Assembly (NCBI GenBank): GCA_028712505.1
Contig: JAQTQC010000001.1
Coordinates: 13,635 to 77,634 of the forward strand
Reading direction: 5' to 3'
Origin: Candidatus Omnitrophota bacterium
GTDB lineage: Bacteria; Omnitrophota; Gorgyraeia; Gygaellales; Profunditerraquicolaceae
DNA: 64,000 bases
The notes beneath the pieces are model-generated. The model did no database searches and had not been told where the DNA came from. It saw nothing but the letters and a program-made list of their open reading frames with translations. Positions within the stretch are counted from its first letter, which is position 1, and every line of letters starts with the position of its first letter. Of the stretch, positions 8,074 to 57,021 are shown piece by piece. The position numbers and the translations under genes were made by a program.

Positions 8074-9630
8074 TTACTTGGCGTACTCAATAGCGCGCAT
8101 CTCGCGAATTACCGTAACTTTAATTTGCCCCGGATACTCCATACCTTCTTCAATTTTTTTACGGATATCCCTGGCCATAGCAGTTGCATCATTATCATTT
8201 ATCTTTTCCGGTTGGACAATTACGCGAATCTCCCGTCCGGCCTGAATGGCAAAAGATTTTTCAACCCCTTTAAAAAGGTTGGCGATCGATTCCAGCTTGT
8301 CCAAACGCTTGACATATGTTTCAAGGGTCTCACGCCTTGCTCCGGGACGAGCAGCACTAACTGCATCAGCAGCTACAGCTAAAACCGCATATAAACTCTG
8401 CGGCACAGCTTCTTCATGGTGCGATTCAATTGCGCCTACCACCTCGGCGGTTTCATTATATTTCTTCGCTAAGTCCGCCCCCAGCTTAGCATGTGTCCCT
8501 TCTACCTGATGGTCTACTGCTTTTCCGATATCATGCAAGAGCCCGATCCGACGGCCTAATTTAAAATCAAGCCCCAGCTCCGAAGCCATTATCCCCAATA
8601 AAAAGGAAACTTCTTTAGAATGTTGCAGGGCATTCTGTCCATAGCTAGTGCGGTACTTAAGCCGACCTAAAAGTTTGATTATCTCAGGATGTAATCCATT
8701 TATTCCTGCCTCAAAAGCCGCCCGTTCTCCTTCTTCGCGGATCTTCTCATCCATTTCTTTTTTAGTCTTTTCTACGATCTCTTCGATCCGACCGGGGTGG
8801 ATCCTCCCGTCAGAGATAAGTTTTTCCAGGCTTAAGCGGGCAATCTCCCGGCGCACAGCATCAAAGCCAGACAGAGTAACCGCTTCAGGGGTATCATCAA
8901 TAATTACATCTACCCCGGTTGCCATTTCTAAAGCCCGAATATTTCTGCCTTCCCTGCCGATAACCCGACCTTTCATTTCATCGTTAGGCAAAGTTACTAC
9001 GCTTACAGTTGACTCCACAGTATGCTCTGCGGCACAACGCTGGATAGCCAAACTTAAGATTTCACGGGCTTTCTTATCTGCAGTACTACGTACCTCTTCT
9101 TCCTGGCGCCGGATAAATACCGCCTTCTCATTATTCAATTCTTCGTTGAGGCGACCGAGCAGGATTTGTTTTGCCTCTTCAGCCGAGAGAGAAGAAATCT
9201 TCTGCAGCCTCTCCTTTTCTTCTGCAACTAAGGCATATAGCTGGCTGTCTTTTGACTTTAAGGCTTCTTCCTGTTTTTTAAGGTTGTCATTACGGGCATC
9301 GATCTCTTTTTCTTTTTTCTCCAAGAGATCCAGCCTGCGGTCAATATTTTCTTCTTTCTGGGTTAGCCTCTTCTCGAGATTTACAATCTCCTGCTTGCGT
9401 TCCCTGGTTTCCTGATCAAAATCCTGGCGCATACGATGCAAAAGATCTTTAGCCTCCAACTCCGCTTCCCGGCGTTTATCCAAGACCTCTTTATTGGCTA
9501 CCTCCAGGATATGTTCAGCTTCTGCTTCAGCGCTTTTCAGCTTTTTTTCAGCTATATGCTTCCTTAAAGAATAACCGGAATAGGCGCCAGCTAAAACAAC
9601 AAATGCTGTGATTACTATATTGAGAATCAT
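8074..9630 (-). CDS. rny: ribonuclease Y
   Basis: N-terminal transmembrane helix, a long coiled-coil, a KH domain ('[22 protein letters not shown]') and an HD domain ('LLHDIGKA'). 518 aa. Confidence 0.93.
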
Positions 9631-13550: not shown

Positions 13551-16500
13551 TTACAACCTTGCTAAAATGAATCTCATCTCTGCATCTGGTTTACCTGAAT
13601 CCAGCAGGGCCAACATTTCTTTAAGTGAAAGGTCTGTGTTAAGCGCCAAATCTTCCTGCATCCTCAGCATATCTGCAATACAATCTAAAACCTTTCCCAT
13701 CTCCAGGCTGATATTCTTGTGTTCACTACAAGCCCAAAGGTATTCTTTAACCCGTTCACTGGAAGGGATGATTCCCGCCTTAAGCATATTATCAATTTGG
13801 GCCCAGGATGCATCAAGATTAATACCGACCAACTGAGCTGGAACTGCTAAGCTGCCTAGCTGCCTATTTAACCCCAACCGGGCAACAAGGGGCAGAGAAC
13901 GCAGATCAATCCCTCCAACAGGGGTACCACCAGGATCATCCTGACCTGAAGGATTGACAGCTTCTTCTGCGTTCAATTTTATAAGTTCATTTCTTAAAAT
14001 AAAAACTTGCAGCAGAAATTTGTTTTTTTGTTCTGATTTTTCAATAACAATCGGTTGGTTATTGCTATCCAAGCCAGCCTTTCTGTCAAACTCGATCGGG
14101 TAAAATGTATTTTCAACAGCCCGCCCCTGCTGCTCCAGGCCGGAAAAACGCAAGGCCTCCGAAAGTCTGCTATAAAACATAAAGCTATCTGTTTTTTTCA
14201 AGGCATCCGCTTCGGATAATCCCTGTTTACGCAGTTGATCGTATATTACACCCTCCAGGAAAAGTACTATTGAACCGGTCAAGGTAGTGTCTATAAACCT
14301 GACACCTTTACGCTTAATGCTCTCCATATCCAGGCCCACCGAGGACAAATACAACAGCGCCTTTTCTGCAGCCTGGCGCAGATTATTGCCATAACCATCA
14401 AATTGTCCGTAGGCTTTTTCATTGCCGGGGTTTTCTTGATTCATAAGACCGGAAAGAAGATTAAAAAAACGCAATTTGAATTCCGGAAAATCCTCCGCGG
14501 CCACCGCTTCATCCCTATCGTACCCCATTTCTTTCTTTATAGACTGAAACATAAAATGGATGACTCCATCTCCTGCTATTGAGCCGAAGAAGAATCTAAA
14601 AGTCGCCTTTGATAAAAATAGCCCCTGTGCAGGTTTGTTTTTTAATTTTTCTGCAGCGTAAAGCGCAAAGGAATCCCGGAATAAGAATATATTCTCCTTG
14701 CCGTCATCTTTGAGGGCGCCCGCGAATTTATGTGCTAACTGTGCCTGGAGCATAGCGTTATTGTATAAATCTACGAATATCGACGGACTGATCCCGAGTT
14801 GACTGGCTATATCTTCCATTTCCTCGCGCCCAAGAATATTGCCGGATTCTTGCAATATTCCGTCAAACCAACGCATGAAGTTAATAAACGGTCCACTGAT
14901 TTCCTGTCTTGCGAATTCTTCAGCGGGAGAACTAACGGGTTTATCCTGAGCAAGAGGAGTTGTTCTTAATTGGATGAGCACCTTAAACGGCGACATCTTC
15001 ATCCATTGTCCATCGCTTAAGTGGATAACCACCCGGGAAGTTTTCTTCGCAGAACCTCCCTCGACAAATCCACCTTTTTCTATAAAATCAGCCTGATCGA
15101 ATATCCCGGAATAATTATACCGCGATACATACTGTCCGGACAAATAACCAAAATCAACCAAAGAGGTGATATTAACCGGTTCTGAATCCCGGACCTTCTG
15201 ATAAATCTCCTCTACGCCCATGCCGCTGTATTTGCCTGACCAAACAGCATCGCCTTCCTTGGCAAAATCACGCTCGGCCTCCAGCCGATGATGCTGTTGA
15301 CTTAAATCCCCAAAGGCATAGTCGATAGTGATAATCTCGCCGCGCTCAAGGCTACGCTCCATCTCGTCCTGCCAATCAAGAGACTCGAGATTTACCGCTA
15401 TCTCCTTGCCTGCTTTCAGCTCAATGCCGTTTTTCTTAAGATAATCAAGGTAAGTATTGATGCGCGGATCGGATAGAGGGCCCGGGACATCATGTAGCAT
15501 ACCGTTATTATCCACTGCCACATATAGCTCTTGCGGCTGGCCAACTGCATCAAACCTTACCCGATGGATTCCAAAGTCATCGGGTAGCTCATTAGAAAGA
15601 AACGCCCCGGTGATCAAACCGTATTCCTGCCGCAAAGAAGCTAGATTACGGGCATCAGAACCAACCCAAGAAACTTTTCCCTGAAATTCTCCAAGCTTCT
15701 TTTCCTGAGTAATCTTTAAGTTAGCCTGGCTAATCTCTACGATAACATACCTCAAGGCTTTATAAAGAGTAGGTTCGGTTGCAGGAAATTTTTTATCCTG
15801 TTCTTTTAATTGATTCAGAATATTGAAGGCTAATGTCCCGTTACCAGCACCCATTTCTACAATCGTAAATACAGAAGGCTGCCCAAGCATCAGCCATTTT
15901 TGCATTAAATGGTTTGAAATCGCCTGGGCCAGCAACTCTCCTTCTTTGCCTTCGGCAAATGTCAGGAATCCATCATCAACATCTTTCTCGATTTTCGCCC
16001 GAGAAGCATAATATCCGTATTTTGGATGCCCCTGGGCTATATTCATAAAATCAGCAAATGTTATTTTTTTATCCGGAGCCATACCGATATATTCCATAAC
16101 CACTTCGTATATATTGCTTGCTGAGGAGGAGCCGAGAAAAGATATAGCAGGTTCTTTTGTAATATTCACTTCTCCTGCGGACGAGCTAGACATGCCGACA
16201 AGATAATCTTTTTTAGAAGCAATGTCTCCCTGAAGAGATCTTTTTGCATTTATTACGCTGTAGGGATCGCTAATCGCTGGATCTGGACCTGTGGGCCGCT
16301 GAGGAAAGGATTGCTCGGGAACAAGCTGTATTCCTCCACTAAAATATCTTCTCACGGACCGCCCATAAAGAGTTTGAACTGATTCTTTAAATTTATACTC
16401 ACCATCTTTAAAAGAACTTTGGTATTGCTGAAAGTATTGCTGTTTGGACCAGCTGCCAGTTGAGATTAAACCGGTTAAGTCTCTCTTGTCTATACGCAAA

Positions 16501-17351
16501 CTGCAAATGCCCCCCTTGCCGGAGAATCTGGCCTTAAACCACTGGGCAAGGATTAATGAATAATAAACTTGCCGCAATGAAGCATATCTCTTGGAGGTGT
16601 TTACCTCCTTAGTAAGTTTGGGGATAATCTCATCTTTGATCAACCGGCTTGAATATTCGTTTAAAGTTTTCAGCCTGGGGTCCTGGAAATTATAGTTAGC
16701 TGAATTCTTAAGATAATCATCCTCGAGCAAAACCTTGAGAGTAGCCTTGTAAATATAAGCGTTGTTTTCCGCTTCTCCGATAATAATCTCATCCGGAACT
16801 ATCCAGGGCCTGACCAAAGTAGGAATAGTAATGTTATCGGCACCTAAAAGTTCTTCAGCTTTCCTATAAAGTTTATCCCAGTATTGTTTGCCTTCCGGAG
16901 TCTGGGGAGAAGTGTAGGCTGCGGTGTCCTTTTTAAGCTGGACATCGGCTTCTAGCAGAATCCTGCCTGCTTCAGTCTGCACCAAGTAGTCATCAATAAT
17001 ATTATCCGCTGAATCAGGTCTAAGGTTAACCCAAAAACTATCATTGGGCAGGGTAATGCCGGTAAAAAAATAGCTCAAGAGCTCCCTGGCCGAATCCTTG
17101 AGAACTGTCTCTGGTAATTGCCGGGAATCTCCTTTGTCTAACAAGAGCTTAAAACTATTGTCCAGCTTATCATAGGAAAGATAGCGTAAATGTACAGGCC
17201 TGAATTTATCCGTAGACAGAGAATTACCTAAAGCGGAGAAATAACCGGAGACATCCAATTGACCGGTTGACTGGGCAAATCCAGATTGCTCAAAGACAAG
17301 CAGGAAACAAATTAAAAAATAAATTATCCTGGGAAATTTGTTTTTCATCAT
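13551..17351 (-). CDS. large exported protein (1266 aa) with an internal MidA/NDUFAF7-like (DUF185, SAM-dependent methyltransferase fold) domain
   Basis: Signal peptide 'IIYFLICFLLVFEQSGFAQS'. Internal 'VEMGAGNGTLAFNIL' (methyltransferase motif I, as in MidA 'ELGPGrGTL') and 'GAFLSNELPDDFGIHRV' (MidA 'ANEllDAlPvhr' motif). The rest has no recognisable similarity. Confidence 0.55.
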   Translation of the reverse strand: MMKNKFPRIIYFLICFLLVFEQSGFAQSTGQLDVSGYFSALGNSLSTDKFRPVHLRYLSYDKLDNSFKLLLDKGDSRQLPETVLKDSARELLSYFFTGITLPNDSFWVNLRPDSADNIIDDYLVQTEAGRILLEADVQLKKDTAAYTSPQTPEGKQYWDKLYRKAEELLGADNITIPTLVRPWIVPDEIIIGEAENNAYIYKATLKVLLEDDYLKNSANYNFQDPRLKTLNEYSSRLIKDEIIPKLTKEVNTSKRYASLRQVYYSLILAQWFKARFSGKGGICSLRIDKRDLTGLISTGSWSKQQYFQQYQSSFKDGEYKFKESVQTLYGRSVRRYFSGGIQLVPEQSFPQRPTGPDPAISDPYSVINAKRSLQGDIASKKDYLVGMSSSSAGEVNITKEPAISFLGSSSASNIYEVVMEYIGMAPDKKITFADFMNIAQGHPKYGYYASRAKIEKDVDDGFLTFAEGKEGELLAQAISNHLMQKWLMLGQPSVFTIVEMGAGNGTLAFNILNQLKEQDKKFPATEPTLYKALRYVIVEISQANLKITQEKKLGEFQGKVSWVGSDARNLASLRQEYGLITGAFLSNELPDDFGIHRVRFDAVGQPQELYVAVDNNGMLHDVPGPLSDPRINTYLDYLKKNGIELKAGKEIAVNLESLDWQDEMERSLERGEIITIDYAFGDLSQQHHRLEAERDFAKEGDAVWSGKYSGMGVEEIYQKVRDSEPVNITSLVDFGYLSGQYVSRYNYSGIFDQADFIEKGGFVEGGSAKKTSRVVIHLSDGQWMKMSPFKVLIQLRTTPLAQDKPVSSPAEEFARQEISGPFINFMRWFDGILQESGNILGREEMEDIASQLGISPSIFVDLYNNAMLQAQLAHKFAGALKDDGKENIFLFRDSFALYAAEKLKNKPAQGLFLSKATFRFFFGSIAGDGVIHFMFQSIKKEMGYDRDEAVAAEDFPEFKLRFFNLLSGLMNQENPGNEKAYGQFDGYGNNLRQAAEKALLYLSSVGLDMESIKRKGVRFIDTTLTGSIVLFLEGVIYDQLRKQGLSEADALKKTDSFMFYSRLSEALRFSGLEQQGRAVENTFYPIEFDRKAGLDSNNQPIVIEKSEQKNKFLLQVFILRNELIKLNAEEAVNPSGQDDPGGTPVGGIDLRSLPLVARLGLNRQLGSLAVPAQLVGINLDASWAQIDNMLKAGIIPSSERVKEYLWACSEHKNISLEMGKVLDCIADMLRMQEDLALNTDLSLKEMLALLDSGKPDAEMRFILARL

Positions 17352-17635: not shown

Positions 17636-18175
17636 TTATTTTACATAAGCCCGGATTATTTTTTGCTCACTAACCGGACGGTCTTCGGCATTAACCGGAG
17701 TGTTTTCAATCTTCTGAACCACTTCCAAGCCGGAAACCACTTCACCAAATATAGTATGACGCATATTCAACCAAGGTGTTTTCGCGCAGGTAATAAAAAA
17801 CTGGCTACCGTTGGTATTTGGTCCGGCATTAGCCATCGCTAAGATCCCGGGGCCGTCAAATTTGGCTTGCGGGGTAACTTCATCTTCAAATGGTTTTCCC
17901 CAAATTGACTCTCCGCCCATCCCGGTTCCTGTAGGATCACCGCCTTGAATCATGAAACCCTTGATTACACGATGAAATATTAAACCGTTGTAATAACCTT
18001 TTTCAATTAACTTTACAAAATTCTCGCAAGTCTTGGGAGCAACATCGGTTTTTAACTTTATCTCAATATCCCCTTGATTGGTTTCTAAAATTACTAATTT
18101 CTCATCCATAGCAAAGCTTCCTCCATAGCAGTTAATCAAACACAGGGTTAATAAAACAACTAGTAGTTTTTTCAT
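17636..18175 (-). CDS. ppiB: peptidyl-prolyl cis-trans isomerase, cyclophilin type (exported)
   Basis: Signal peptide, then '[33 protein letters not shown]' cyclophilin core. Confidence 0.88.
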
Positions 18176-21100
18176 GCCTTTTCTCCTTCTTCTTTCTGTT
18201 TTTGCTTTTCCAAAATAATCTTTTGAGCGATTTCATTTGGAACTTGCGTATATTTATCAAACTCCATGCTGGCATTAGCCCTGCCGCTGGAGAGAGAGCG
18301 AAAATTGGTAGCATAACCGAACATCTCCGATAGAGGGGCTTCTGCGGAAATAATTTTCTGGTTTGCCTTGGCATCAATATTTAAAATCTTGCCGCGGTGC
18401 GAACAAATAAATCCCACGCAACCGTTAACATATTCTTCGGGGGTCGAAACCTCCAGCTTCATGCTTGGTTCAAGAAACACCGGGTTACCCTTCATAAACG
18501 CCTCTTTAAACCCGAATATGGCTGCCATTTTAAAAGCAATTTCCGACGAATCAACTTCGTGGTATGAACCATCAACTAATGACACTTTCACATCTACGAC
18601 TGGATATCCACCATATGCCCCTTTTTGCATCGCCTCAATTACCCCTTTTTCCACCGCCGGGATAAATGAACGAGGAATTGCTCCTCCCTTAATCTTGTCG
18701 ATAAACTCAAACCCTTCCCCTGCTTTATTAGGGACCAGCTCTAAGACTACGTGACCATATTGACCACGACCGCCGGATTGTTTAATGTATTTATTTTCTG
18801 CACTGGCTGGCTTGAGAATAGTCTCCCGATAAGCAACCTTAGGCTGCCCTACGATTGCCACAACCCCAAATTCCTCCTTTAGCCTATCAACGATAATCTC
18901 TAGATGCAACTCACCCATACCGGTAAGGATGACTTCTTTGGTTTCCTCATCAGTCTCCACTTTGAATGTAGGATCCTCTTCCGTGAGTTTCGCCAATCCC
19001 TTCCCTAGCTTATCCTGGTCATCCCTGCTCTTCGGGACAATACTTAAAGAAATCACCGGCGTAGGAAATTTTATCGCCTCTAAAATTAGAGGATGATCAA
19101 CATCACAAAGCGTATCCCCGGTTATCGTACTAGACAAGCCGGGAATCGCTATAATATCTCCGGCAAAGGCATAATCAATATTTTCGCGCTGATTAGCGTG
19201 CATCTGCACAATACGGCCGATTCTTTCTTTCTTGTTTTTCAATGTATTCAGGACATACGTACCAGTGGATAAAATTCCGGAATACACCCGCACATAAACA
19301 AGCTTGCCCATATGCTGGTCAGCCTGCACCTTAAAAGCCAGTCCACAAAACGGTTCTTTAATATCCGCCTTGCGCAATAATTTCTTCTCCGAGTCGTTTA
19401 TATCGCTTCCTTCAATCGCAGGTAAATCCAGTGGTGAAGGTAAAAAAGCAACAATGGTATCTAATAATTTCTGCACCCCTTTATTTTTAAAAGATGCCCC
19501 ACAGGTAACCGGAACCATTTTATTAGCAATAGTCCCCTGGCGGATAGCCTGATACAACTCCTCTATGGTAATCGACTCTTCTGATTCCAAGAACTTTTTC
19601 ATAAGCGCGTCGTCCAAACCAACTGCACGCTCGACCATAATGTGCCGGTATTTTACCGCTTGTTCTTTATAATCTTGCGGTATTTCATTAACCGTAAACT
19701 CTTTACCTAAAGATGCGTCATCGTATATATAAGCTTTCATCTCGATCAAATCAATCACTCCGCGGAATTTATCTTCAGATCCTATAGGAATTTCCAAGGG
19801 AACGGCATTAGCTCCTAGATCTTTCTCAATTCCGTTTAACACGCTAAAAAAGTCTGCTCCGGTACGATCCATTTTATTTATAAAAGCAATCTTCGGCACA
19901 TGGTATTTATCCGACTGTCTCCACACTGTCTCTGACTGTGGTTCTACTCCGCCCACCGCGCAAAATACCGCGACAGCCCCATCCAAGACCCTCAAGGAAC
20001 GCTCTACCTCAACCGTAAAATCAACATGCCCCGGGGTATCAATAATATTAATCCGGTGATCTTTCCAAAAACAAGTAGTAGCCGCGGATGTAATAGTGAT
20101 ACCCCGCTCCTGCTCCTGCTTCATCCAATCCATAGTTGCCGCTCCATCGTGGACTTCACCGATTTTATACGAACGTCCGGTATAAAAGAGTATTCTTTCA
20201 GTAGTGGTAGTTTTACCGGCATCAATATGCGCCATAATCCCGATATTTCTTACTTTATCCAGGCTTATCCTCGGGACTACCTGCGATTCCGGACTAGGCT
20301 CTTCTGCTCTTAGAGCCTGCTCACCTGTAGAATCTGCTGTTGCCGGAATTTCTTCTTTTACTTGTTCCGCCTCTGCCGAAATCTGCTCTTTCATCGGCTC
20401 TTGTGGCTTATAATCGTCTTCAAAAGAAGCTTCTTTTATCTTCTCATCCATGCCAGTTGGTATTCCTTCCGGCAATACCTCATCTTTTACCTGCTCTTCC
20501 GCTGCCACTTTTTCTTCCAGCCTAACCTCAGGGTCTTTCTTTTTGGCCTCCGGCAAGGATGATTCTTTTGCTTTTTCTCCCTGACGCAAATGAGCAATCT
20601 CTTCGGCAAAATTCTTTAACCTTTCCTGAGCAGACTCTAAATCTTTTTCCAGCTGAGTATATTCTTCATTTAATTTATTGAATTCTGATTTGGGAACCCA
20701 CTCGTTTATCTTTTCTTTGCGCTTAAATTCGGCAATAACGGCTAAATATTCATCGATGTTCTTAAGTTGTTTTTCAATCTGGTGTTTTTGTATCTGCACC
20801 TGCTCCTCTTTAAGCTTAGCCTCTGTTTCTTTTGTTTCCAGGGAAGTCTTAATTTCCCGGATCTCCCGTGATAAATTTACATTCTTAGCAAACTCTTCCT
20901 GTAATTCGTTTTCTTTAGCGATAAATTTATTCTTTAAATCCAGATTTTCCGGTTTTATCTTGGACAGCTCTGCCTCGGCCCTGGCCACCCACTCATCCCG
21001 GCGTTTTAATTCTTCAGAGAACTTAGCCTCTTTTTCTGCTACTGCTGTAAATTCGTTTTTTTCATTTTCATATGCGGCTTTGGTCTGGCTTAACTCATTT

Positions 21101-21285
21101 TCCAATTCAGAGACTTGTTTTTGCAACCGCTGTATTTTTTGTTCCTTAGCAGGTTCATCCGAAGGCGTAGGTCCTTTTTCGTTTTTCCTGGCATGTTCCT
21201 TATCGGGAGCGCTAAACATCCCGACAGTAGCATAAATAACCATTCCCACACCTAAAACCGCTAATATTAACATTGCCGCTATCAT
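18172..21285 (-). CDS. elongation factor G paralog with an N-terminal transmembrane helix and ~320-aa coiled-coil extension
   Basis: Residues ~345-1037 are full-length EF-G ('[24 protein letters not shown]...[26 protein letters not shown]...'). Residues 1-25 '[24 protein letters not shown]' are hydrophobic. Residues ~40-340 are K/E-rich heptad-like sequence. One uninterrupted 1037-codon ORF. Confidence 0.75.
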
Positions 21286-21291: not shown

Positions 21292-22605
21292 TTACCCTTT
21301 GCCGCGTATTTTCTCCAGACGCTCTTTAATTTTAGCCTCATGACCTATATCCGTAGGCTCATAGTAACGCACCTTTTTACGTGTATATTTTTGTTTCACA
21401 AAATGATCCGGATAGTCATGTGCGTATTTATACCCTAGACCATGTCCTAATTTTTCTGCGCCGCTGTAACTAGCATCCTTTAAATGGTCCGGAACCTCTT
21501 GAACTTTATTTTCTTTAATATCCTGGCTGGCCTTTTCAATCGCTAGATAGCTTGCGTTGGATTTAGGGGCACAGGAAACATATATTACTGCCTGAGCCAA
21601 AGGGATTCTGGCTTCTGGCATACCCACAAACTCAGAAATCTGTAAAGCTGCATTGGCCAAAACTAACGATAGAGGATCAGCATTTCCCACATCTTCGGCG
21701 GCCAGGATACAAACCCTGCGGGCGATAAAACGCGGATCTTCTCCGGCGTAAAGCATTTTAGCCATCCAATAAATCGCCGCATCCGGGTCAGTTCCGCGCA
21801 TAGACTTAATAAACGCCGAAGCAGTATCATAATGCCCATCTTCATCGCGGTCGTAAACAACTGCCTTCTTCTGTATAGACTCCTGGGCAATCTCCAGACT
21901 GAAATTAATCTGGCCATCTTTACCTGCTGCGGTAGTCAAGACCCCTAATTCTAAAGCTGCCAGAGCCCTGCGGGCGTCACCTTCGCAACTCTTAGCTAAA
22001 AAATTAAGCGCCTTTTTATCAGCCTTGATTTTAAAACTTCCCAAACCCCTGTCTTTATCCTTTAAAGCATTATTTATTATACTTAATAAATCCGTTATTT
22101 GAAGCGCTTTCAGTTCACAAACAATCGAACGGGAAAGCAGCGCCGAGGTGAGCGAAAAATAAGGATTATGCACTGTCGCCCCGATTAAAACTATAGCTCC
22201 TTCTTCAACATCCGGCAGAAGTACATCCTGCTGAGCTTTATTGAAACGGTGGATTTCGTCGATAAACAGGATAGTTTTTTGTTTTTGGCCTGTTGATCGT
22301 AATTTAGAGGCAGCGATTATTTTCCGTAATTCTTCAACATTTGAAGTGGTAGCGTTTATCGCCACATAATTTGCCTGGGTAATATTTGCAATACACCAGG
22401 CAAGAGAGGTTTTCCCGCATCCAGGAGGGCCAAAAAGAATAAGCGAACTTAACCGGTCAGCTTCAATAGCGCGGCGTAATAATTTCCCTTTGCCCAATAT
22501 ATGCTCCTGGCCAGTCAATTCATTGAGGTTGGCTGGCCGCATACGTACGGCTAAAGGCAGATTTTTATCCTGGGTGTTTAATTTTTGGGGGGAGAATAGA
22601 TCCAT
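21292..22605 (-). CDS. rarA: replication-associated recombination protein A (AAA+ ATPase)
   Basis: Walker A 'LFGPPGCGKTSLA' and the RarA/MgsA C-terminal domain. 437 aa. Confidence 0.9.
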   Translation of the reverse strand: MDLFSPQKLNTQDKNLPLAVRMRPANLNELTGQEHILGKGKLLRRAIEADRLSSLILFGPPGCGKTSLAWCIANITQANYVAINATTSNVEELRKIIAASKLRSTGQKQKTILFIDEIHRFNKAQQDVLLPDVEEGAIVLIGATVHNPYFSLTSALLSRSIVCELKALQITDLLSIINNALKDKDRGLGSFKIKADKKALNFLAKSCEGDARRALAALELGVLTTAAGKDGQINFSLEIAQESIQKKAVVYDRDEDGHYDTASAFIKSMRGTDPDAAIYWMAKMLYAGEDPRFIARRVCILAAEDVGNADPLSLVLANAALQISEFVGMPEARIPLAQAVIYVSCAPKSNASYLAIEKASQDIKENKVQEVPDHLKDASYSGAEKLGHGLGYKYAHDYPDHFVKQKYTRKKVRYYEPTDIGHEAKIKERLEKIRGKG

Positions 22606-22954
22606 AGGTTATTTACCCCGCTGCTTCGCAATATTCCGCAAGAAGCGGGATTATTTCGCGGACGCTTAACGCTATAACTTATATTATCGCTCCATAAGTT
22701 ATCCACTCAATAAAAAATCCCCGCAGAAGTGCCGTTGGATAGATAGTTTGAACCGTTTGCTTTCAGGTGGGAGCCTCTCTTTAAGCACGTATGCTTAAAA
22801 GAAGTATTGGCTCCCTTGAAAAAAGTGTTGGTTCAATAATTATCAAATTTCCAACGCGCACCGCAGGGATATCTAAAAGAACTGTTGATTCTAAAAGAAG
22901 TATAGCACATATCTATGGTTAAAATCAATCCCGGATGCGCTTTTGCTGATTTCC

Positions 22955-37224: not shown

Positions 37225-37425
37225 TCAAGTATTTTCTTTGCCTAAAATTACACTTACGCGGACTTTAGCTGGCTTAGCTCCGGGCATTCCAAAAAGCCCC
37301 TTCTTCTCTTCAGATAGCACCTGAATCTTGACATTTTTACGCGAAATCTTTAGTTCTTCTAAAGCTTTAGCAATCGCTTCTTCAACAGTGTTGCCCTCAG
37401 TCTCTAAATATTTCAGTTTTTTCAT
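37225..37425 (-). CDS. Jag N-terminal-domain protein (truncated KhpB/Jag-like; KH and R3H domains absent)
   Basis: 66 aa 'LETEGNTVEEAIAKALEELKISRKNVKIQVLSEEKKGLFG' resembles the Jag_N domain. Occupies the position immediately after yidC where jag normally sits. Confidence 0.5.
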   Translation of the reverse strand: MKKLKYLETEGNTVEEAIAKALEELKISRKNVKIQVLSEEKKGLFGMPGAKPAKVRVSVILGKENT

Positions 37426-38951
37426 TTTTGTTTATTCAAACGCACTTGATAACTCAGCATCAGAATACTATTAACAAACCAATAGAGAACTAAACCCGAT
37501 GGCATCTGATAAAAAATAACCCCAAACATGATCGGCATAATGATTGACATTATTTTCTGCTGCTGAGCTGCTTCACCAGTAGCCTTTACCATGGAAATCT
37601 TTTGTTGGACAAACATTCCTATGGCCATTAAGATCGGCAGTATATTCACCTGATTGCCTAAAAGCGGTATTGAATTTTTAAAGGTAAAAAGCTGATCCGG
37701 GGAAGAAAGATCTTTAATCCAAAGAAAATGCGCACCTCTTAAGGCTACAGAACGAATTAAGGCCTGGTATAAAGCAAAGAAAATCGGCATCTGCAATAAT
37801 AAGGGTAGACATCCGCCCAGTGGATTAACCTTATGCTCTTTATATAATTCCATGATTTCCTTATTCAATCTTTGAGGATTATCCTTAAGCTCTTTACGTA
37901 AGGCATCGATTTTAGGCTGAAGCAGCTGCATCTCCTTCATCGAACGCATTTGTTTTAAAGAAAGAGGGAAAAGCAGTAAATAAACCGCCAGACTTAATAT
38001 AATTATAGCCCAACCCCAATTGTGCACTAAGCTATAAAAAAACCCAAGTAGCTGTAAAAGAAGTTGAGCAATAAAATCAAAAACTCCAAAATATATAATT
38101 GCCGACCATTCCGGCTTAATACTGTCTAATGTTTTTAAATCCTGAGGACCCAAATAGATACGATATAAATGTCCAATCTGCTCACCAGGTTTTAAGGTAA
38201 CCTTATTACCTGATATTCCTACCTCTGACTCCTGATGGTTAATTTTCTTGACATAGGCGCTACCAGTCGAATCAACTGGTTCAAGAATAGCGCAAAAATA
38301 CTGATCCCGCAATCCAACAAATTTAAGGTCATTTACTAAAAGCTCTTTGCCAGCTGCTGAATGTATTGTTTTTTCCTTGGTGCTCAAGAGGATATCCTGA
38401 TAGCGAGACTGAATATTCTTGGCCGATAAATCCAACCTGCCTAAGACTAGCTGTGGATTTAGCAAAAGGGGAGATGAGGATAAGTTTTGAATCCTTACCT
38501 CTAAGTCTATGAGATAACTATCTTTAGGAATAATGAACTTTTTGGTGATCCGCTTGTTCTGATCTTGATAAACAAACGAAATTTGCTCATTACTTACATT
38601 TTCCTGCTTAAACAGGATATTATTATCACTAAGCAAACCGTATTTAAGCGATAACCGGTGTTCAAGCTTATTTTTAAAAACTACATCTACAATAGAAGCC
38701 CTGGATGGATCAAAAAAAATATCCCTGTTCTCCTGGGTAAACTTCACAATCTCTTTTGCAGGCTCCAATACAGGTTTAAGCGAGACTGATTCAGGACTAC
38801 TAGTAAGAAGCTGTTGTTCCTTTGCTCCTATCTGCCCTTTAACATTTATAACCTCTTTATTATCAACAAGTTGCGGTTTAGGACTTATAGCTGACCAACT
38901 TAACAAAACCAGCAAAGACAAAGCAATGGCTAATACTAAACGTTTTTCCAT
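37422..38951 (-). CDS. yidC: membrane protein insertase YidC
   Basis: Periplasmic domain followed by the conserved 60-kDa IMP core ('LGGCLPLLLQMPIFFALYQAL'). 509 aa. Confidence 0.93.
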   Translation of the reverse strand: MEKRLVLAIALSLLVLLSWSAISPKPQLVDNKEVINVKGQIGAKEQQLLTSSPESVSLKPVLEPAKEIVKFTQENRDIFFDPSRASIVDVVFKNKLEHRLSLKYGLLSDNNILFKQENVSNEQISFVYQDQNKRITKKFIIPKDSYLIDLEVRIQNLSSSPLLLNPQLVLGRLDLSAKNIQSRYQDILLSTKEKTIHSAAGKELLVNDLKFVGLRDQYFCAILEPVDSTGSAYVKKINHQESEVGISGNKVTLKPGEQIGHLYRIYLGPQDLKTLDSIKPEWSAIIYFGVFDFIAQLLLQLLGFFYSLVHNWGWAIIILSLAVYLLLFPLSLKQMRSMKEMQLLQPKIDALRKELKDNPQRLNKEIMELYKEHKVNPLGGCLPLLLQMPIFFALYQALIRSVALRGAHFLWIKDLSSPDQLFTFKNSIPLLGNQVNILPILMAIGMFVQQKISMVKATGEAAQQQKIMSIIMPIMFGVIFYQMPSGLVLYWFVNSILMLSYQVRLNKQK

Positions 38952-38956
38952 AAATT

Positions 38957-39181
38957 TTATGTTAAGGGATCAAAACCTGACTGGCCAGAAAAAGGATGGC
39001 AACGCAGAATTCTTCCTAACCCCTTACATACTCCTTTAATTAACCCATATTTTATAATCGCCTGTTTGGCATACTCAGAACAGCTTGGCTCAAAACGGCA
39101 GCTTACCGGCATAACTGGCCTTACATATTTCTGATACACAGTTATTAATTTAAGAATGGGCCCTGCTAACGTTAAATACAA
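38957..39181 (-). CDS. yidD: membrane protein insertion efficiency factor YidD
   Basis: 'LITVYQKYVRPVMPVSCRFEPSCSEYAKQAIIKYGLIKG...RILRCHPF' is the YidD signature. The predicted TTG start overlaps the rpmH stop. Confidence 0.85.
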   Translation of the reverse strand: MYLTLAGPILKLITVYQKYVRPVMPVSCRFEPSCSEYAKQAIIKYGLIKGVCKGLGRILRCHPFSGQSGFDPLT

Positions 39182-39309
39182 AGTTTTTTTCTTCCCTTGC
39201 TCCGTCGACGAGCTAATGTCTTGCGTCCGGATTTAGAGGACATTTTCTTGCGAAAACCCTGGCTTCTCTTGCCAACAATATTCGAGGGCGTTGTAAGATT
39301 CTTCTTCAT
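39172..39309 (-). CDS. rpmH: 50S ribosomal protein L34
   Basis: Manual translation on the minus strand gives MKKNLTTPSNIVGKRSQGFRKKMSSKSGRKTLARRRSKGRKKLCI (45 aa), matching bL34 (...[29 protein letters not shown]...). Missing from the ORF track because it is <60 aa. Confidence 0.85.
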   Translation of the reverse strand: MKKNLTTPSNIVGKRSQGFRKKMSSKSGRKTLARRRSKGRKKLCI

Positions 39310-39634
39310 TTTAGTTTCTCCTTGTTGCTTCTGTTAATAAAACTAAGCGGGTTATGAATTATTAAAACGACCTTCTTGATTTTGTGAATTGTAACATACA
39401 TTCATCACGCGGTCAAGTTTTTTATTGACGTTCTGACATATTATTGTATAATAACTGACATTTAAGTTTTCTACTTGCAAGGTCTTTAGTCTCTGTTATA
39501 ATAGCTATGTTGGCCTCGGTCTGGATAGCAATCTTTATCCACAGATTTATGCAAGTTGTGTATAATCTGTTAATTTCATCGACCTGCAATGCGGTCAGTT
39601 TACCAACGAGTTTAGTTTTATCAACGGGTTAAAT
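39310..39634. other. probable chromosomal replication origin (oriC) / dnaA promoter region
   Basis: AT-rich divergent intergenic region between rpmH (-) and dnaA (+). It contains a perfect DnaA box, degenerate boxes at 39520-39528 and 39618-39626, and -35/-10 elements (TTGCAA-16-TATAAT at 39475-39502, TGTGTATAAT at 39557-39566). Gene strand bias flips exactly here. Confidence 0.65.
39535..39543 (+). promoter_or_regulatory. DnaA box (TTATCCACA, perfect consensus)
   Basis: Exact 9-mer consensus. An inverted 7/9 match (TCTGGATAG) lies 7 bp upstream at 39520-39528. Confidence 0.7.
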
Positions 39635-40972
39635 ATGCTTGAGCTTGCCAAAAACTGGGATGAGGTATTAGGTGATTTAAAATCCAAGCTTGGAGAAACT
39701 ATATTTTCCACCTGGCTGGCCCCCTTAAAATTTTCTACCGCGGATAGCCAAAACATCAAATTAGAGGCTCCTGATCAGTTTTTTAAGGATTGGGTTGAGA
39801 AACACTATCTTGGACTAATCCAAGAAGCTTTGAAAAATAAGGGATTGAATAATCTGTTAGTAAAGTTAAGTGTGGCCGATACCCAGGATGCCCCGCTTAC
39901 ACCAAATAAGCCCGCTGAAACGAATATCAAAACCCCTCAACCGGCAGGACACCTTAATTTAAATTCACGCTATACTTTTGAAAATTTTGTAATCGGACAA
40001 TCAAACCGCCATGCCCATGCGTACTCACTGGCTGTCGCAAATTCACCAGCTAAAACATACAACCCGTTGTTCATTTATGGAGGAGTGGGATTGGGAAAAA
40101 CACACCTTATCCAAGCCATCTGCCATCAAATAAAGAATAATAGCGCGGCGGGGACAAAAATATGTTATGTCTCAAGTGAAAAATTTACTAATGAGTTGAT
40201 CGATGCCATACTCCATCGCACCACTACCTCTTTCAGACAGAAATACCGCAACCTTGATGTTTTGGTTATTGATGATATTCATTTTATCGCCGGGAAAGAA
40301 TCAACTCAGGAAGAATTTTTTCACACTTTTAACGCACTATACGACTCACATAAACAAATCGTTTTTTCCTCTGACCGTCCGCCGAAAGAAATAACCAACC
40401 TGCAGGACCGCCTGGTTTCACGATTCGGCTGGGGTTTAGCTACAGATATCCAGCCGCCGGATTTAGAAACCCGGGTTGCCATTCTAAAGAAAAAGATTGA
40501 ACGCGAACCTGTCAGCGTGCCCGATGATGTCATATTCTTTATCGCGCAATTAATCAAAACAAATATTCGCGAATTAGAGGGAGCGCTGATCAGAACAATC
40601 GCTTATTCTTTATTAGAAGAGGAGCCGGTAACCCTGGAACTCACTAAAGAGGTGCTCAAAGACTTACTAAAAGAGCCGAAGAAATTAATTACCGTGGATT
40701 TTATTCAACGCTGCGTAGCTGAAGAGTTTGGAGTATCTTTACAGGAATTAAAAACCAAACGCCGGAACAAACAAGTTGTTTTTCCCCGGCAAATTGCCAT
40801 GTATTTAAGTAGAGAGTTAACCGATTTATCTCTCCCTGAAGTAGGGGAGCTTTTTGGAGGCAAGGATCATACTACGGTTTTACACTCCTACAAGAAAATT
40901 AAAGAGGATATCTATAATAACCCGGAATTAAAAGAACGGGTAGAAAAAGTTATTCAGGTTATTAAACAGTAA
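39635..40972 (+). CDS. dnaA: chromosomal replication initiator protein DnaA
   Basis: AAA+ Walker A 'GGVGLGKTHL' and the domain IV DNA-binding helix-turn-helix (ends '…VLHSYKKIKEDIYNNPELKERVEKV'). 445 aa. Confidence 0.95.
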   Translation: MLELAKNWDEVLGDLKSKLGETIFSTWLAPLKFSTADSQNIKLEAPDQFFKDWVEKHYLGLIQEALKNKGLNNLLVKLSVADTQDAPLTPNKPAETNIKTPQPAGHLNLNSRYTFENFVIGQSNRHAHAYSLAVANSPAKTYNPLFIYGGVGLGKTHLIQAICHQIKNNSAAGTKICYVSSEKFTNELIDAILHRTTTSFRQKYRNLDVLVIDDIHFIAGKESTQEEFFHTFNALYDSHKQIVFSSDRPPKEITNLQDRLVSRFGWGLATDIQPPDLETRVAILKKKIEREPVSVPDDVIFFIAQLIKTNIRELEGALIRTIAYSLLEEEPVTLELTKEVLKDLLKEPKKLITVDFIQRCVAEEFGVSLQELKTKRRNKQVVFPRQIAMYLSRELTDLSLPEVGELFGGKDHTTVLHSYKKIKEDIYNNPELKERVEKVIQVIKQ

Positions 40973-41114
40973 TTCAAGGGTTATTGGATACAAAATTTTC
41001 ACTCAACCCACTTTTAATTAAAGGGGTTGCGCATTTTTCAACAGAAACCTAACCCCTTTAATACTACGATGATATTAAGATTTTAAATATATATAAATAG
41101 AAGGAGATTGGATA

Positions 41115-42206
41115 ATGAAATTTAAAGTGGATAAAGATAGCTTAGTTAGTGCAATTCAAACTGTGCAAAATATAATTACCGCAAAATCCGCCTTACCGAT
41201 ACTCTCTAATATATTGATTGAAACTCAGCAGGGTGTTATAAGGTTGACCGCAACCGATTTAGATATAGGAATAACCTGTGTAATTCCTGTGGATATCCAG
41301 GAGCAGGGAGCAATCACTATTCCTGCTAAAAGATTTAGCGATATAATTAAAGAGTTTCCTGTTGATATTGTTAGTGTTACAACAAAAAAGAATAATTTAG
41401 TTGTAATTGAATCTGAGTTGTGCCAATTTAAAATCATGGGTTTGGCAAAAGAGGAGTTCCCGAAACTTCCAGAGTTTAAAGACAAAAAAGTTATTAAGAT
41501 TGAGCAGTCAACTTTAAAAGAAATGCTCGCTTTGACTTCTTTTGCGGTATCTTTTGATGAAACAAGATATATTTTAAACGGGATTCTTTTTAGGATCTGT
41601 AAGGGGGTTTTGACCCTTGTTTCTACGGACGGTAAGAGGTTGGCGATTGCGGAGAGAAAGTTAAGTGTGGATATTGATGCCGATATAAGTATTATTGTTC
41701 CTATTAAAACAATACATGAATTGAATCGCAATTTAAAGGATGATGGGGAGCTGTCTTTGGTTGTTGGTAGCAACCAGGCTCTTTTTGATCTGGGAAATGT
41801 GGTAATAATTTCTCGTTTAATCGAGGGGGAATTTCCGGATTACAAACAAGTTGTTCCTGCGGTATCTGAAAATAAAATGAAAATTGTACGTAGCCAATTT
41901 TTGTTGGCGGTAAAAAGGGCAGCACTTTTGGCCACCCCTGATTATCAGGCTGTAAAATTAGAAGTATTTAAAAACAAGCTTGTGATTTCTAAGTCTACGC
42001 CAGATGTAGGAGAGTTTCATGAAGAATTAGCAGCGGAATATCAGGGTAGGGAATTAATTATTGGTTTCAACCCGGTTTACTTGATGGATATTTTGAAGAA
42101 CCTCAGCGATGAATTTATTAATTTAGAATTAACTGACGGAGAAAAACCCGGGGTTATCCGTATTAGCGGGTATATTTATATAGTATTACCTATGCGGATT
42201 AATTAA
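41115..42206 (+). CDS. dnaN: DNA polymerase III beta subunit (sliding clamp)
   Basis: 'MKFKVDKDSLVSAIQTVQNIITAKSALPILSNILIE' and a three-domain clamp architecture. 363 aa. Directly downstream of dnaA. Confidence 0.93.
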   Translation: MKFKVDKDSLVSAIQTVQNIITAKSALPILSNILIETQQGVIRLTATDLDIGITCVIPVDIQEQGAITIPAKRFSDIIKEFPVDIVSVTTKKNNLVVIESELCQFKIMGLAKEEFPKLPEFKDKKVIKIEQSTLKEMLALTSFAVSFDETRYILNGILFRICKGVLTLVSTDGKRLAIAERKLSVDIDADISIIVPIKTIHELNRNLKDDGELSLVVGSNQALFDLGNVVIISRLIEGEFPDYKQVVPAVSENKMKIVRSQFLLAVKRAALLATPDYQAVKLEVFKNKLVISKSTPDVGEFHEELAAEYQGRELIIGFNPVYLMDILKNLSDEFINLELTDGEKPGVIRISGYIYIVLPMRIN

Positions 42207-42208
42207 AA

Positions 42209-44934
<2,726 letters not shown>

Positions 44935-44936
44935 TT

Positions 44937-45770
44937 ATGGAAATAATTATACCGAAAAAAAACAAAGTGGCTGTTCATCCAGTTGTTGTTTTTAAGCAAG
45001 CCTGGGGTATCTGCAAAGGCAACCTGAATAAGCTAAGCGCCATTTACCTGATTTTTAATGTGCCGATTTCCATTGCTTTTTTAATGCCTATAGCAGGTAA
45101 ACCTCAGGATCAGTCAAACTCACCATGGCTGCTTTTGTTTTACATCTTGATTTTGATAGCAAGTATCTGGAGTCATATTGCCTTGCTGCTAGCTGCTAAA
45201 AAGGCGGTTAACCTAGAGCCTTATTCAATCAGCCAGAGCATAAATCAGGTCAGAGAGTTCTTTTTTAAATACCTGGGGACAGTCCTGCTTTCTATTTTAA
45301 TTTTTATGGCCATAGTAATATTTGGTTGGGTATCTGTAACGATGATTTTAGGGGTATTGTCAAAAGTTAATAGAATGCTGGCAGTATCTGCTGGTCTTAT
45401 CATAACAATAGCAGTTCTTGTGTTTTTAGTCTATCTTATGTTGCGCTGGTCACTGGCCACAGCAGCTTGCGTTCTTGAGAATGTACGTCCGGTTACTGCT
45501 TTAAAGCGCAGTTTTTCTCTGATCACGGAATATGTGTATCCTGTTGCAGGTACTTATTGTTTAATCATGCTTATATATATTGTTTGTCTGATGTTTTTTA
45601 TTATTGTAGGGGGATTCTTGAACATCGGTAGCGATATCGAACAAGCCAACCGGATAAGTACAGTATTCAGTTTGATTATTAACATTGTGCTGATGCCGTT
45701 TTGGAGCACGATCACAGTAACGTTGTATAGAAAATTGAAAGAGGCGAAAGAGGCTTATGTACACGCGTAA
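44937..45770 (+). CDS. hypothetical polytopic membrane protein inserted between gyrB and gyrA
   Basis: 277 aa with ~6 predicted TM helices and no family motif I can name. Start 3 nt after the gyrB stop. Its end overlaps the gyrA start. Confidence 0.45.
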
Positions 45771-51362: not shown

Positions 51363-52691
51363 TTGGCCAAAGAATTAGAGATTCCCTCGGAGATTAAGAA
51401 GCTTTTTCCCTTTCCTTCCGGGGATGAGCCATTTGACGCTGATAAGAACACTTCCCCCTGTCTAACCGATTTGACCCTTAATTTAACTTCTAGCTGTAAT
51501 CTTCGTTGTGTTTATTGTTGGAACGATCATGGTAAATATTCCAACCGTAAATTTTCAGGTAAGCGAAAAGGCCAATTCAGCGATAATGCTAAAAATGAGC
51601 AGATGTTACCCGAAACTGCTTTAAAAGCGGTGGATGTTTTAGTGGCAGCCCGCGGCAGGGATAAAGATTTGGTGGTTGATTTTTACGGCGGCGAGCCTTT
51701 GATGAATCTTAGGACGCTTAGGGAGACGGTTGATTATTGTCGGAAGAATCAGTCGAAATGGGGAGTAGTTTTTCATTTTCTCCTGGCAACGAATGGGACT
51801 TTTTTAACTCCGGATGTAGCTAAAGAATTAATTGATAAGGGAGTGCAGATTGCGATTAGTATTGATGGCCCCAAGGCGGTACATGATAATAACCGGCCGT
51901 TTATTGATCAAAAGGGGAGTTTTGACGCGATTTTATCCAATCTTAAAAGAATGCCTAAGGAGGTAATGAAAAGATTAGTCGGTCGGACTACGGTGACTCC
52001 CTTTTTCCCCGATATGGTAAAATTGTACGAAAACTTAAGAAAGTTGGGGTTTGAGCGGATTGAGCTTTTTGAGAGTGAAGATGCCTGTCACAGATTTCTT
52101 CCCGGGCAGGAAACAAGTTTTTTTAGCACCGAAGATAGCTATAGGCTTCTGTGTAAAACATATGAAAAACTGGCATTAAGATATATAGAGGATGTTGTCT
52201 CAGGTAATTTAAATTATAGCAAAACATTCTTTAACCGGTTTTTTAAATTAATGCAGAGGTTATATTATAATCATGAAGTTTCGGGTGGATGCCCTGCTGC
52301 GAAAGGGCAAATTGCCGTGGGTATCGATGGTAAAATCTATCCCTGCACTTCATTTTTAGGAGTGCAAGAATTTGAGTTAGGGGATGTAGATACAGGTATC
52401 AATAGCGTTAAATTCCAGGAGTTTATTAATAAGATAAACAAGCGTTTTGACCACTGCCGGAAAGACTGTGGATTATTCAGTCTTTGCCGTTCAACCGGGT
52501 CGTGTTTAAACGTAAATTATTTTTTTAACGGTGATCCTGCAGTCCCCCATAAAAGAAGTTGCGAGCTTTTTGCGGAGAAATTATCTTTGGCTGCGGCAAG
52601 CCTGGCGATACTTTCCGATAAAATCCCTCAGCGGCTTGAGGAGTTGTTTGGGTTTGACCCGATAGGCAGAAGGGGAAATAAATTATATTAA
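51363..52691 (+). CDS. radical SAM protein with C-terminal SPASM domain (peptide/protein-modifying maturase class)
   Basis: 'SSCNLRCVYCW' CxxxCxxC radical-SAM cluster. C-terminal Cys-rich SPASM region ('CPAAKGQIAVGIDGKIYPCTSF...CRKDCGLFSLCRSTGSC'). Apparent TTG start, with no in-frame ATG upstream. Confidence 0.8.
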   Translation: MAKELEIPSEIKKLFPFPSGDEPFDADKNTSPCLTDLTLNLTSSCNLRCVYCWNDHGKYSNRKFSGKRKGQFSDNAKNEQMLPETALKAVDVLVAARGRDKDLVVDFYGGEPLMNLRTLRETVDYCRKNQSKWGVVFHFLLATNGTFLTPDVAKELIDKGVQIAISIDGPKAVHDNNRPFIDQKGSFDAILSNLKRMPKEVMKRLVGRTTVTPFFPDMVKLYENLRKLGFERIELFESEDACHRFLPGQETSFFSTEDSYRLLCKTYEKLALRYIEDVVSGNLNYSKTFFNRFFKLMQRLYYNHEVSGGCPAAKGQIAVGIDGKIYPCTSFLGVQEFELGDVDTGINSVKFQEFINKINKRFDHCRKDCGLFSLCRSTGSCLNVNYFFNGDPAVPHKRSCELFAEKLSLAAASLAILSDKIPQRLEELFGFDPIGRRGNKLY

Positions 52692-57020: not shown

Positions 57021-57021
57021 A

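Follow-up and report, generated by a model that had tools for sequence, protein, structure and literature searches.

Is the elongation factor G (EF-G) encoded at this locus carried on a membrane anchor, and, if so, is it the only EF-G of its cell or an additional one? EF-G is regarded as a cytosolic factor that diffuses freely, and every model of elongation kinetics has this diffusion and rebinding built into it. The gene that raises the question lies in a 64,000-nucleotide (nt) stretch of a Candidatus Omnitrophota genome (GCA_028712505.1, contig JAQTQC010000001.1, positions 13,635 to 77,634), which we call the window and number from its first letter. The open reading frame (ORF), at 18172..21285 on the minus strand, begins with ATG and encodes, over 1037 codons and without interruption, a predicted transmembrane anchor, a coiled-coil stalk, a disordered linker, and EF-G. 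From the comparisons below, we conclude that the joining of a canonical EF-G to a novel, predicted membrane-anchored coiled-coil module is real and that it is conserved in a large lineage of ultra-small Omnitrophota.

The original prediction, which a model had made from the letters of the window, described a single 1037-codon ORF encoding both the N-terminal region and EF-G. This is borne out by a second NCBI assembly, JBAZIF010000005.1 (GCA_041651975.1), in which the ORF is equally intact and 6 of 14097 nt differ from the window. When 5.8 billion proteins were searched for fused homologues and the best 120 clusters (90% identity) were taken, about 105 of them were proteins of 965–1059 amino acids (aa) with the same layout, at 97–100% query cover and 59–94% identity. 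Relative to the window protein, their N-terminal regions are 31–62% identical and their EF-G parts 74–95%. The named homologues are from Candidatus Omnitrophica or Omnitrophota, and the sources include ENA, JGI, Logan, and NCBI. Because the second assembly has the same intact ORF and these diverged homologues share it, the fusion is not an assembly accident; an artefact or frameshift is ruled out by that assembly together with about 100 independent homologues of the same layout.

Orthologous fusions in related genomes, which the original prediction had proposed to look for, were also found by scanning GTDB, one genome per species, with a profile of the N-terminal 340 residues. The scan matched 124 species, and the loci inspected are the 80 listed among them, all from Omnitrophota (we denote related loci by L numbers and homologous proteins by P numbers). 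The fusion is present at 51 of the 80 loci, complete at 48 and cut by a contig end at 3. Fused genes sit in at least four genomic contexts, including those of L087/L090, of L088, and of L089, where the gene follows dnaG-rpoD. Several fusion-bearing GTDB genomes are titled 'uncultured Planctomycetales bacterium' (CAY... and CAZ... accessions); their loci are syntenic with those of Omnitrophota and 60–90% identical to them, and the submitter label is probably wrong.

Residues 341–1037 (18172..20265, minus strand) are a canonical EF-G by every sequence and fold test. Pfam recognizes the G domain with G′ at residues 344–617, domain II at 645–728, domain III at 740–813, domain IV at 815–933, and domain V at 937–1022 (GTP_EFTU, EF-G_D2/GTP_EFTU_D2, EFG_III, EFG_IV, and EFG_C), so all five domains of the complete, well-conserved EF-G originally described are there. 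The EF-G equivalog model TIGR00484 matches residues 340–1028 over profile positions 5–690 of 691 with 1052.4 bits against a cut-off of 659.4. In Foldseek comparisons with solved structures of EF-G, the AlphaFold2 model reaches target-normalised TM-scores of 0.89–0.94. The P-loop, DTPGH, NKMD, and the domain-IV tip SGGRGQYGH are all present and are invariant in 96 orthologues. The label 'EF-G2-type' in the original prediction is wrong, because TIGR00484 is far above its cut-off and the EF-G2 models are below theirs (NF009377, 500 vs 890; NF058620, 468 vs 1000); likewise, the protein scores 866 bits against Thermus thermophilus EF-G and 392 bits against the T. thermophilus EF-G-2 homologue 1wdt. 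The models for ribosomal protection proteins of the Tet(M)/Tet(O) type (tet_protect, 383.8 vs 775) and for RF3 (NF001964, 269.8 vs 473) also remain under their cut-offs.

For the N-terminal 340 residues, transmembrane and heptad calls were made with simple hydrophobicity and 3.5-residue periodicity calculations and with two AlphaFold2 models, one of the full-length protein on 96 sequences and one of residues 1–340 on 25 sequences. AlphaFold2 lays this part out as a transmembrane helix (2–24), disorder to about residue 44, a helix (45–194), a break, a second helix (199–238), and disorder to residue 340, where the predicted local distance difference test score (pLDDT) is about 36. The hydrophobic helix that had been noticed at residues 3–25 is real and conserved, and we place it at 2–24 (21214..21282, minus strand), with the conserved pattern GxGMVxYA; hydrophobicity is kept in each of the 101 orthologues scored. 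On average, their hydrophobic stretch is 27 residues long, and almost nothing, with virtually no Lys or Arg, comes before it. Lys and Arg follow the helix on its C-terminal side only in 101 of 101 (mean K+R per 20 aa, 5.35 vs 0.02 on the N-terminal side). Since the positive charges lie solely C-terminal of the helix in every orthologue scored, we assign it as an N-out/C-in signal anchor, not a cleavable signal peptide, and this predicted topology would place the stalk and EF-G on the cytoplasmic side. A juxtamembrane disordered segment follows at residues 25–46 (21148..21213, minus strand; pLDDT <50), which is K/R-rich in orthologues, in keeping with the positive-inside statistics.

Next comes the stalk, a long coiled-coil helix at residues 47–194 (20704..21147, minus strand) with a pLDDT of 94–98, in which W99 (within RRxEWV) and H168 are invariant. 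The heptad power at a period of 3.5 is 2.4 for residues 47–193, compared with at most 0.26 at the non-heptad periods tested. Both AlphaFold2 models break the helix at E195-W196-V197-P198 (20692..20703, minus strand), the core of the family signature, and resume it as a second coiled-coil helix at residues 199–238 (20572..20691, minus strand; pLDDT ~90, heptad power 1.8). At 0.15 nm per residue, the ~150 residues of the first helix would span ~22 nm and the ~40 residues of the second ~6 nm. The remaining residues, 239–340 (20266..20571, minus strand; pLDDT ~30–40), form a disordered, acidic, Pro/Glu-rich linker with no heptad signal (power 0.14), 10% Pro, and a net charge of −15. The heptad region that had been drawn from ~40 to 340 is thus supported by heptad power and AlphaFold2 for ~45–238 and contradicted for 239–340. 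Linker length differs among orthologues, with 22–57% gaps in the alignment there, and the linker closes with a conserved PxP(K/R)(Y/I) junction that directly precedes the EF-G fold.

The N-terminal part appears to be translated and selected as protein, since its dN/dS (nonsynonymous over synonymous substitution rate) is low and it holds invariant residues. Because dS is saturated even against the closest species, we give only dN and approximate dN/dS. For the coiled-coil core against the closest species, dN is 0.08–0.09 and dS is >1.2 (saturated), giving a dN/dS of ~0.06; the other values are ~0.2–0.25 for the transmembrane and basic segment, 0.26–0.44 for the gappy and variable linker, and ~0.03 for EF-G, which puts every part of the protein under purifying selection. 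Column identity in the N-terminal core (residues 85–235) is 70–85%, and nine N-terminal residues are invariant in 96 sequences (W99, H168, W196, K199, F202, L205, N206, E208, and E229). No relative of the N-terminal module was found in Pfam, NCBIfam, PDB sequences, or PDB folds (Foldseek); its matches in Pfam and NCBIfam are weak, of coiled-coil type, and far under the cut-offs, and none to a known membrane-tether or coiled-coil family (RNase_Y_N, EzrA, PspA, SMC, and others) is significant.

The module also occurs without EF-G. A stand-alone module ORF of ~230–410 aa is present at 29 of the 80 listed loci, 27 of which share the synteny pheS-pheT-(rarA)-module-ppi-uvrD, and no EF-G was found within 10 kb of the module at any of the 29. 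These loci comprise a main sister clade (26 loci), L007/L008, and two deeper loci, L078 and L080. The stand-alone module lies between rarA and ppi, ~10 kb into each locus, in L007, L008, L011–L023, L025, L027, L031, L032, L035–L040, L043, and L050. A profile search of 1.84 billion cluster representatives returned 284 module relatives, most of them stand-alone, including a more distant group of ~225-aa proteins. The common plan in the family is a transmembrane helix, then a coiled coil of ~170–180 residues, and then a Trp motif at a nearly constant 190–206 residues from the N terminus; there are two invariant Trp residues ~97 apart, the second within (S/T)xW(V/I)(P/S/A)KxE(F/Y)xxL. The ~225-aa forms retain both Trp residues of the fused forms (W198 invariant, W101 in >90%), and their genomic place, between a TPR protein and an aminotransferase, is uninformative. 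EF-G is the sole fusion partner seen for the module. We regard the module, judging from these shared features, as an independent, uncharacterised family of predicted membrane-anchored coiled-coil proteins. Four weak matches to the module profile (P0199, P0222, P0243, and P0255) are 530–720 aa long with a transmembrane helix and tandem coiled-coil units; judged by eye, their C-terminal parts resemble T2SS-E N-terminal (MshEN-like) and PilZ-like domains, which would suggest cyclic-di-GMP-binding membrane coiled-coil proteins.

In which direction did the fusion evolve? In a neighbour-joining tree of the loci, built on PheS, RNase Y, and a DUF5981 protein, all the stand-alone loci included, 15 from the main group, form a single clade. 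Its sister is the fused clade to which the window belongs, and the two are embedded in deep lineages, every one of them fused. A tree of PheS and PheT had misplaced three stand-alone loci owing to a divergent pheT and was replaced. In L012, L017, L023, and L043, PheT is only ~52% identical to the window's, with PheS at 73–84% (for L012, over the best-covering segment); the divergent genes lie at ~6.2–8.3 kb in L012, L017, and L023 and at 4.9–7.0 kb in L043, and pheT may have been replaced there. L007/L008 are a second, independent stand-alone case within the fused clade. The module there ends in ...EIAHLRTALPLKNEEGEKNI, and the 15 nt that immediately precede the ppi start and are its ribosome-binding site (GAAGAAGGAGAAAAG) match the coding sequence of the window's EF-G tail KEEGEKA letter for letter, which we read as the footprint of an in-frame deletion of linker and EF-G. 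On the tree and this footprint, relatives have dropped the EF-G part at this locus on two or more occasions. In L085 (9990–10050) and L086 (8094–8154), a frame offset of one base at A8/A7 runs in the linker leaves two overlapping ORFs, one for the module (314 aa) and one for EF-G (711 aa), and the sequence is identical in two independent samples (ENA and JGI); the offset may reflect a true split, an error in the homopolymer, or a site at which transcriptional slippage restores the fusion.

The losses bear on whether a second EF-G exists. EF-G is essential, and the EF-G part is deleted at this locus in the stand-alone genomes, so these genomes must hold another EF-G; by the same token, that gene already existed at the time of the deletions. 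Other housekeeping proteins of the stand-alone clade are 73–92% identical to those of the window, and an EF-G passed down vertically should lie at ~83–88%. No free-standing EF-G with at least ~76% identity to the fusion's EF-G was found in the 5.8 billion proteins: in the search with the EF-G part, all clusters above 1215 bits (~76% identity) are fused, truncated annotations of fused genes, or the L085/L086 variant. The stand-alone clade must therefore use some other EF-G gene, one that has diverged further. The genes of L087/L090, L088, and L089 were considered as the missing EF-G and are not supported as such, being fused themselves (for L090, as read from an unannotated upstream gap) and branching with the deep lineages in the EF-G tree. 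Canonical S12-S7-EF-G-EF-Tu-S10 operons occur in several complete Omnitrophota chromosomes, according to a preprint that leaves a membrane-anchored EF-G unmentioned (10.64898/2026.06.07.730766). We think it likely, by extension from these relatives, that the genome of the window also holds a free EF-G, and the fusion is then probably an additional copy beside that more divergent one.

The short EF-G records in NCBI might be taken for such free EF-Gs, and this was rejected, since every one checked is a truncated annotation. The NCBI Prokaryotic Genome Annotation Pipeline (PGAP) calls this gene and its orthologues an EF-G of ~700 aa in every assembly checked. The PGAP 'start' of the 698-aa EF-G P0037 is an ATA codon (Ile340; 20266–20268 in the window, minus strand; 6001–6003 in L094), which is an annotation artefact, and in the record in JBAZIF010000005.1, the 1023 nt upstream of this ATA are left without annotation. 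About 1 kb upstream is also unannotated for P0037, P0045, P0085, P0282, P0284, P0291, and P0297, and the other short NCBI records match fused loci at 99.8–100% or fall in a 90% cluster with members of 994–1083 aa. The ~700-aa records are a systematic, homology-guided truncation, and the architecture is invisible in NCBI protein records.

Around the ORF, the gene order is pheS-pheT-6S RNA-rarA-fusion-ppi, as the ORF list and Pfam confirm for the originally reported position between rarA and a cyclophilin gene and outside the str operon. The upstream neighbour, rarA/MgsA (an AAA+ ATPase; 21292..22605, minus strand), is separated from the fusion ORF by a 6-nt gap, which suggests co-transcription, and rarA-fusion synteny is conserved. 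Downstream, the gene for a cyclophilin-type peptidyl-prolyl isomerase (ppi; 17636..18175, minus strand) overlaps the fusion ORF by 4 nt, and its ribosome-binding site, GAAGGAG, sits within codons of the EF-G C-terminal tail. No terminator-like site was found between rarA, the fusion ORF, and ppi. The fusion gene does not belong to the canonical EF-G arrangement rpsL-rpsG-fusA-tuf, and a scan of the window and of 84 related loci turned up no S12, S7, or EF-Tu motifs. It lies instead within the housekeeping cluster infC-rpmI-rplT-pheST-rarA, ~18 kb from dnaA/oriC. The 6S (SsrS) RNA gene directly upstream of the rarA–fusion–ppi unit, between pheT and rarA, is at 22714–22872 (minus strand; 69.6 bits on Rfam RF00013, gathering score 46.4).

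Taken as a whole, these observations are best explained, with a probability of roughly 55%, by a membrane-tethered canonical EF-G on a coiled-coil stalk and linker that is probably an additional copy. According to this explanation, the N-terminal helix would insert N-out/C-in, and the stalk, probably as a parallel dimer, would carry the EF-G head together with the linker, whose 100 residues could add from a few nanometres up to ~35 nm of contour length. The head could then sample ribosomes from the membrane surface to several tens of nanometres away, performing GTP-dependent translocation, and possibly recycling, near the membrane, with EF-G activity concentrated in a cortical zone. Omnitrophota cells are ~0.2 µm in size (PMC10066038). 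At this width, the cortical zone would take in the greater part of the cytoplasm, so a tethered EF-G could still function. Because the Trp motifs and the constant length are kept with or without EF-G, the stalk probably docks a membrane partner and is not a passive spacer, and the fusion would deliver EF-G to that site. The most economical guesses at the partner, given the fusion to EF-G, are the ribosome or the co-translational insertion machinery. Membrane-localised translation or recycling by the fusion, as originally suggested, is a plausible hypothesis. Several points weigh against this explanation. EF-G turns over on ribosomes many times per second, and a tether would slow its three-dimensional search, so that a sole tethered EF-G seems costly; a protease could cut the disordered linker and free EF-G; and the EF-G part was lost at the locus at least twice and split by a frame change in one lineage. 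The losses and the split in L085/L086 mean that the covalent link is dispensable in some relatives.

The competing explanations differ mainly in what the EF-G head would do and whether it stays attached. It is possible, if rather unlikely, that the fusion is the sole housekeeping EF-G and that, with no other fusA, a membrane-tethered factor serves every elongation cycle in cells ~200 nm wide with a tether of tens of nanometres. The moiety is canonical and clears the TIGR00484 cut-off by a wide margin, its pace of evolution is as slow as that of housekeeping genes (dN/dS ~0.03, with 74–95% identity across the clade), its gene stands in a housekeeping cluster near the origin, and the cells are small enough for the tether to reach. 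Furthermore, no second EF-G or str operon was found in the 64-kb window, in 1.4 Mb of related loci, or in IMG/VR, and no second EF-G within 10 kb of the fusion or module in the 80 loci. What argues against a sole EF-G is that linker and EF-G were cleanly deleted in the sister clade (26 loci) and independently in L007/L008, that the other gene these relatives must use is divergent and probably old, and that the preprint's complete Omnitrophota chromosomes carry canonical operons. If the fusion were nevertheless the sole EF-G, all protein synthesis in a nanobacterial lineage would be driven by a translocase on a ~22-nm, ruler-like membrane stalk; the translation apparatus would be arranged in a cortical layer set off from the membrane by a fixed distance, and ribosomes or the insertion machinery would bind to the stalk through its Trp motifs.

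The fusion might also merely couple expression, as a precursor or polyprotein whose linker is cut by a protease to give soluble EF-G and a separate membrane module. The disorder, variability, and weak constraint of the linker would suit this, as would the fact that the module functions without EF-G in relatives and that, in one lineage, module and EF-G are encoded by distinct ORFs that overlap. We consider it improbable all the same: apart from the PxP(K/R)(Y/I) junction, the linker has no conserved cleavage motif, and the in-frame fusion was kept over a long divergence (N-terminal identity down to ~31%) and in several contexts, when adjacent genes suffice for co-expression. Nor are we aware of any bacterial EF-G that is made as a polyprotein. 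A still less probable role is that of a hook, with the EF-G head parking ribosomes on the membrane in docking or hibernation, as E. coli YqjD/ElaB/YgaM do, instead of acting as a turnover translocase. A tether may suit stable binding better than rapid cycling, and by the geometry from AlphaFold2 and periodicity, the stalk and linker would hold a ribosome ~25–35 nm from the membrane; in addition, the ribosome content of Omnitrophota is reported to change with lifestyle (PMC10066038). However, none of the catalytic GTPase motifs varies, nor does the domain-IV tip, and purifying selection on EF-G as a whole is very strong, as would be expected of an active translocase; a hook would tolerate more change. 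Least credible is that internal initiation near codon 340 produces free EF-G alongside the long form or in its place, so that one gene would give two products, as with the isoforms of IF2. The short form is the one that NCBI annotates, and 15 of the 56 fused orthologues surveyed have some ATG, GTG, or TTG at −20 to −5 codons from the NIGI strand of the G domain, a few of them with Shine-Dalgarno-like sequences. But the position is not conserved, such sequences are expected by chance in a linker rich in GAA, GAG, and AAG, and the other 41 orthologues have no start codon where a free EF-G would begin. The window gene itself has no in-frame ATG, GTG, or TTG within 45 codons upstream of NIGI, and its annotated start is the ATA described above, so the exclusive use of an internal start, which the original prediction had named as a result that would overturn it, is unlikely.

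We know of no earlier case of a core elongation factor that is covalently localised. An EF-G anchored across a lineage would amount to a natural experiment on the spatial confinement of bacterial translation in cells of ~0.2 µm. By Rosetta-stone logic, the fusion also ties a new family of membrane-anchored coiled-coil proteins to the ribosome, and it exposes a systematic annotation error, in which PGAP trims the fusion genes to ~700 aa, here at an ATA. If a free EF-G coexists, this would be a new example of EF-G sub-functionalisation, by location and not by sequence.

Several features elsewhere in the window deserve mention. Positions 37422–48186 are an apparent replication-origin region, with yidC, parA, and parB on the minus strand, dnaA (39635–40972), dnaN, gyrB, and gyrA on the plus strand, and the strand switch at ~39.0–39.6 kb. 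The EF-G fusion, ~18 kb from this putative origin, is co-oriented with replication; cumulative GC skew was calculated for 15–24 kb only. At 13551–17351 (minus strand) is a gene for a 1266-aa protein with an N-terminal hydrophobic segment and a central Methyltransf_28, the sole domain recognised. The slot between ppi and uvrD varies, the 1266-aa protein being present, absent, or replaced in related genomes; in L082, an ORF of >2692 aa with a Metallophos domain occupies it. Finally, positions 51363–63993 (plus strand) contain a run of four radical-SAM proteins, three with B12-binding domains, along with two peptidase-U32-like proteins, a PMT_2 glycosyltransferase, and two ORFs without a Pfam match (54456–57020), and this run may be a modification or biosynthesis cluster.

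How does the fusion compare with known systems? Canonical EF-G (FusA; T. thermophilus 1dar and Staphylococcus aureus 2xex) is like residues 341–1037 over its full length, in all domains and motifs. The fusion differs from it in having a 340-residue N-terminal extension, in its length of ~1037 vs ~700 aa, and in lying outside an rpsL-rpsG-fusA-tuf operon. With the EF-G2 paralogues (1wdt), the fusion shares a gene position outside the str operon and may likewise share coexistence with another EF-G, but its sequence is not of the EF-G2 type, as NF009377 and NF058620 indicate, and to our knowledge, no described EF-G2 protein has a membrane anchor. In the full-text literature searched on membrane-anchored or transmembrane-bearing EF-G and on EF-G in Omnitrophota, no such arrangement is described, in agreement with the original remark that no membrane-tethered EF-G paralogue was known.

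The top PDB sequence match to the fusion is an engineered L9–EF-G chimera (PDB 4wpo, 4wqf, and related entries) that served to trap EF-G on the 70S ribosome, was crystallised there, and, like the fusion, carries a foreign domain at the N terminus of EF-G. Because this chimera was solved on the 70S ribosome, an N-terminal fusion should, by analogy, be sterically compatible with ribosome binding. The chimera differs from the fusion in being artificial, with a short, rigid partner and no membrane anchor.

For the tether itself, the closest design is next door. RNase Y, encoded 9 kb from the fusion (8074–9630, minus strand), has its own N-terminal transmembrane helix and coiled coil (Pfam RNase_Y_N), and it tethers a cytoplasmic RNA enzyme to the membrane. 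The design is the same, an N-terminal anchor, then a coiled coil or disordered region, and then a soluble enzyme held at the membrane, except that the cargo of RNase Y is a nuclease and not a translation factor; between the two N-terminal regions, no homology was found (hhalign probability 0.8%). ZipA, with an N-terminal transmembrane anchor, a charged region, a flexible P/Q-rich linker, and a globular FtsZ-binding domain, is similar to the fusion as a bitopic N-out/C-in tether with a long flexible linker and a globular cytoplasmic head, and differs in lacking a coiled-coil stalk, in its cargo, and in showing no detected homology. Precedents for translation components at the inner membrane are the E. 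coli ribosome binders YqjD/ElaB/YgaM and membrane-stored LepA/EF4, a translational GTPase from the same family as EF-G. The YqjD-type proteins, which lack a GTPase, are small and have their anchor at the C terminus, and LepA is peripheral and reversible, with no transmembrane helix. No Pfam match to YqjD-like families was found for the whole protein or the stand-alone modules, and no NCBIfam match for the N-terminal 340 aa or the modules. The likeness to RNase Y, ZipA, the YqjD group, and LepA is one of architecture and not of homology, and the fusion differs from all described members of the EF-G family in its transmembrane anchor and stalk.

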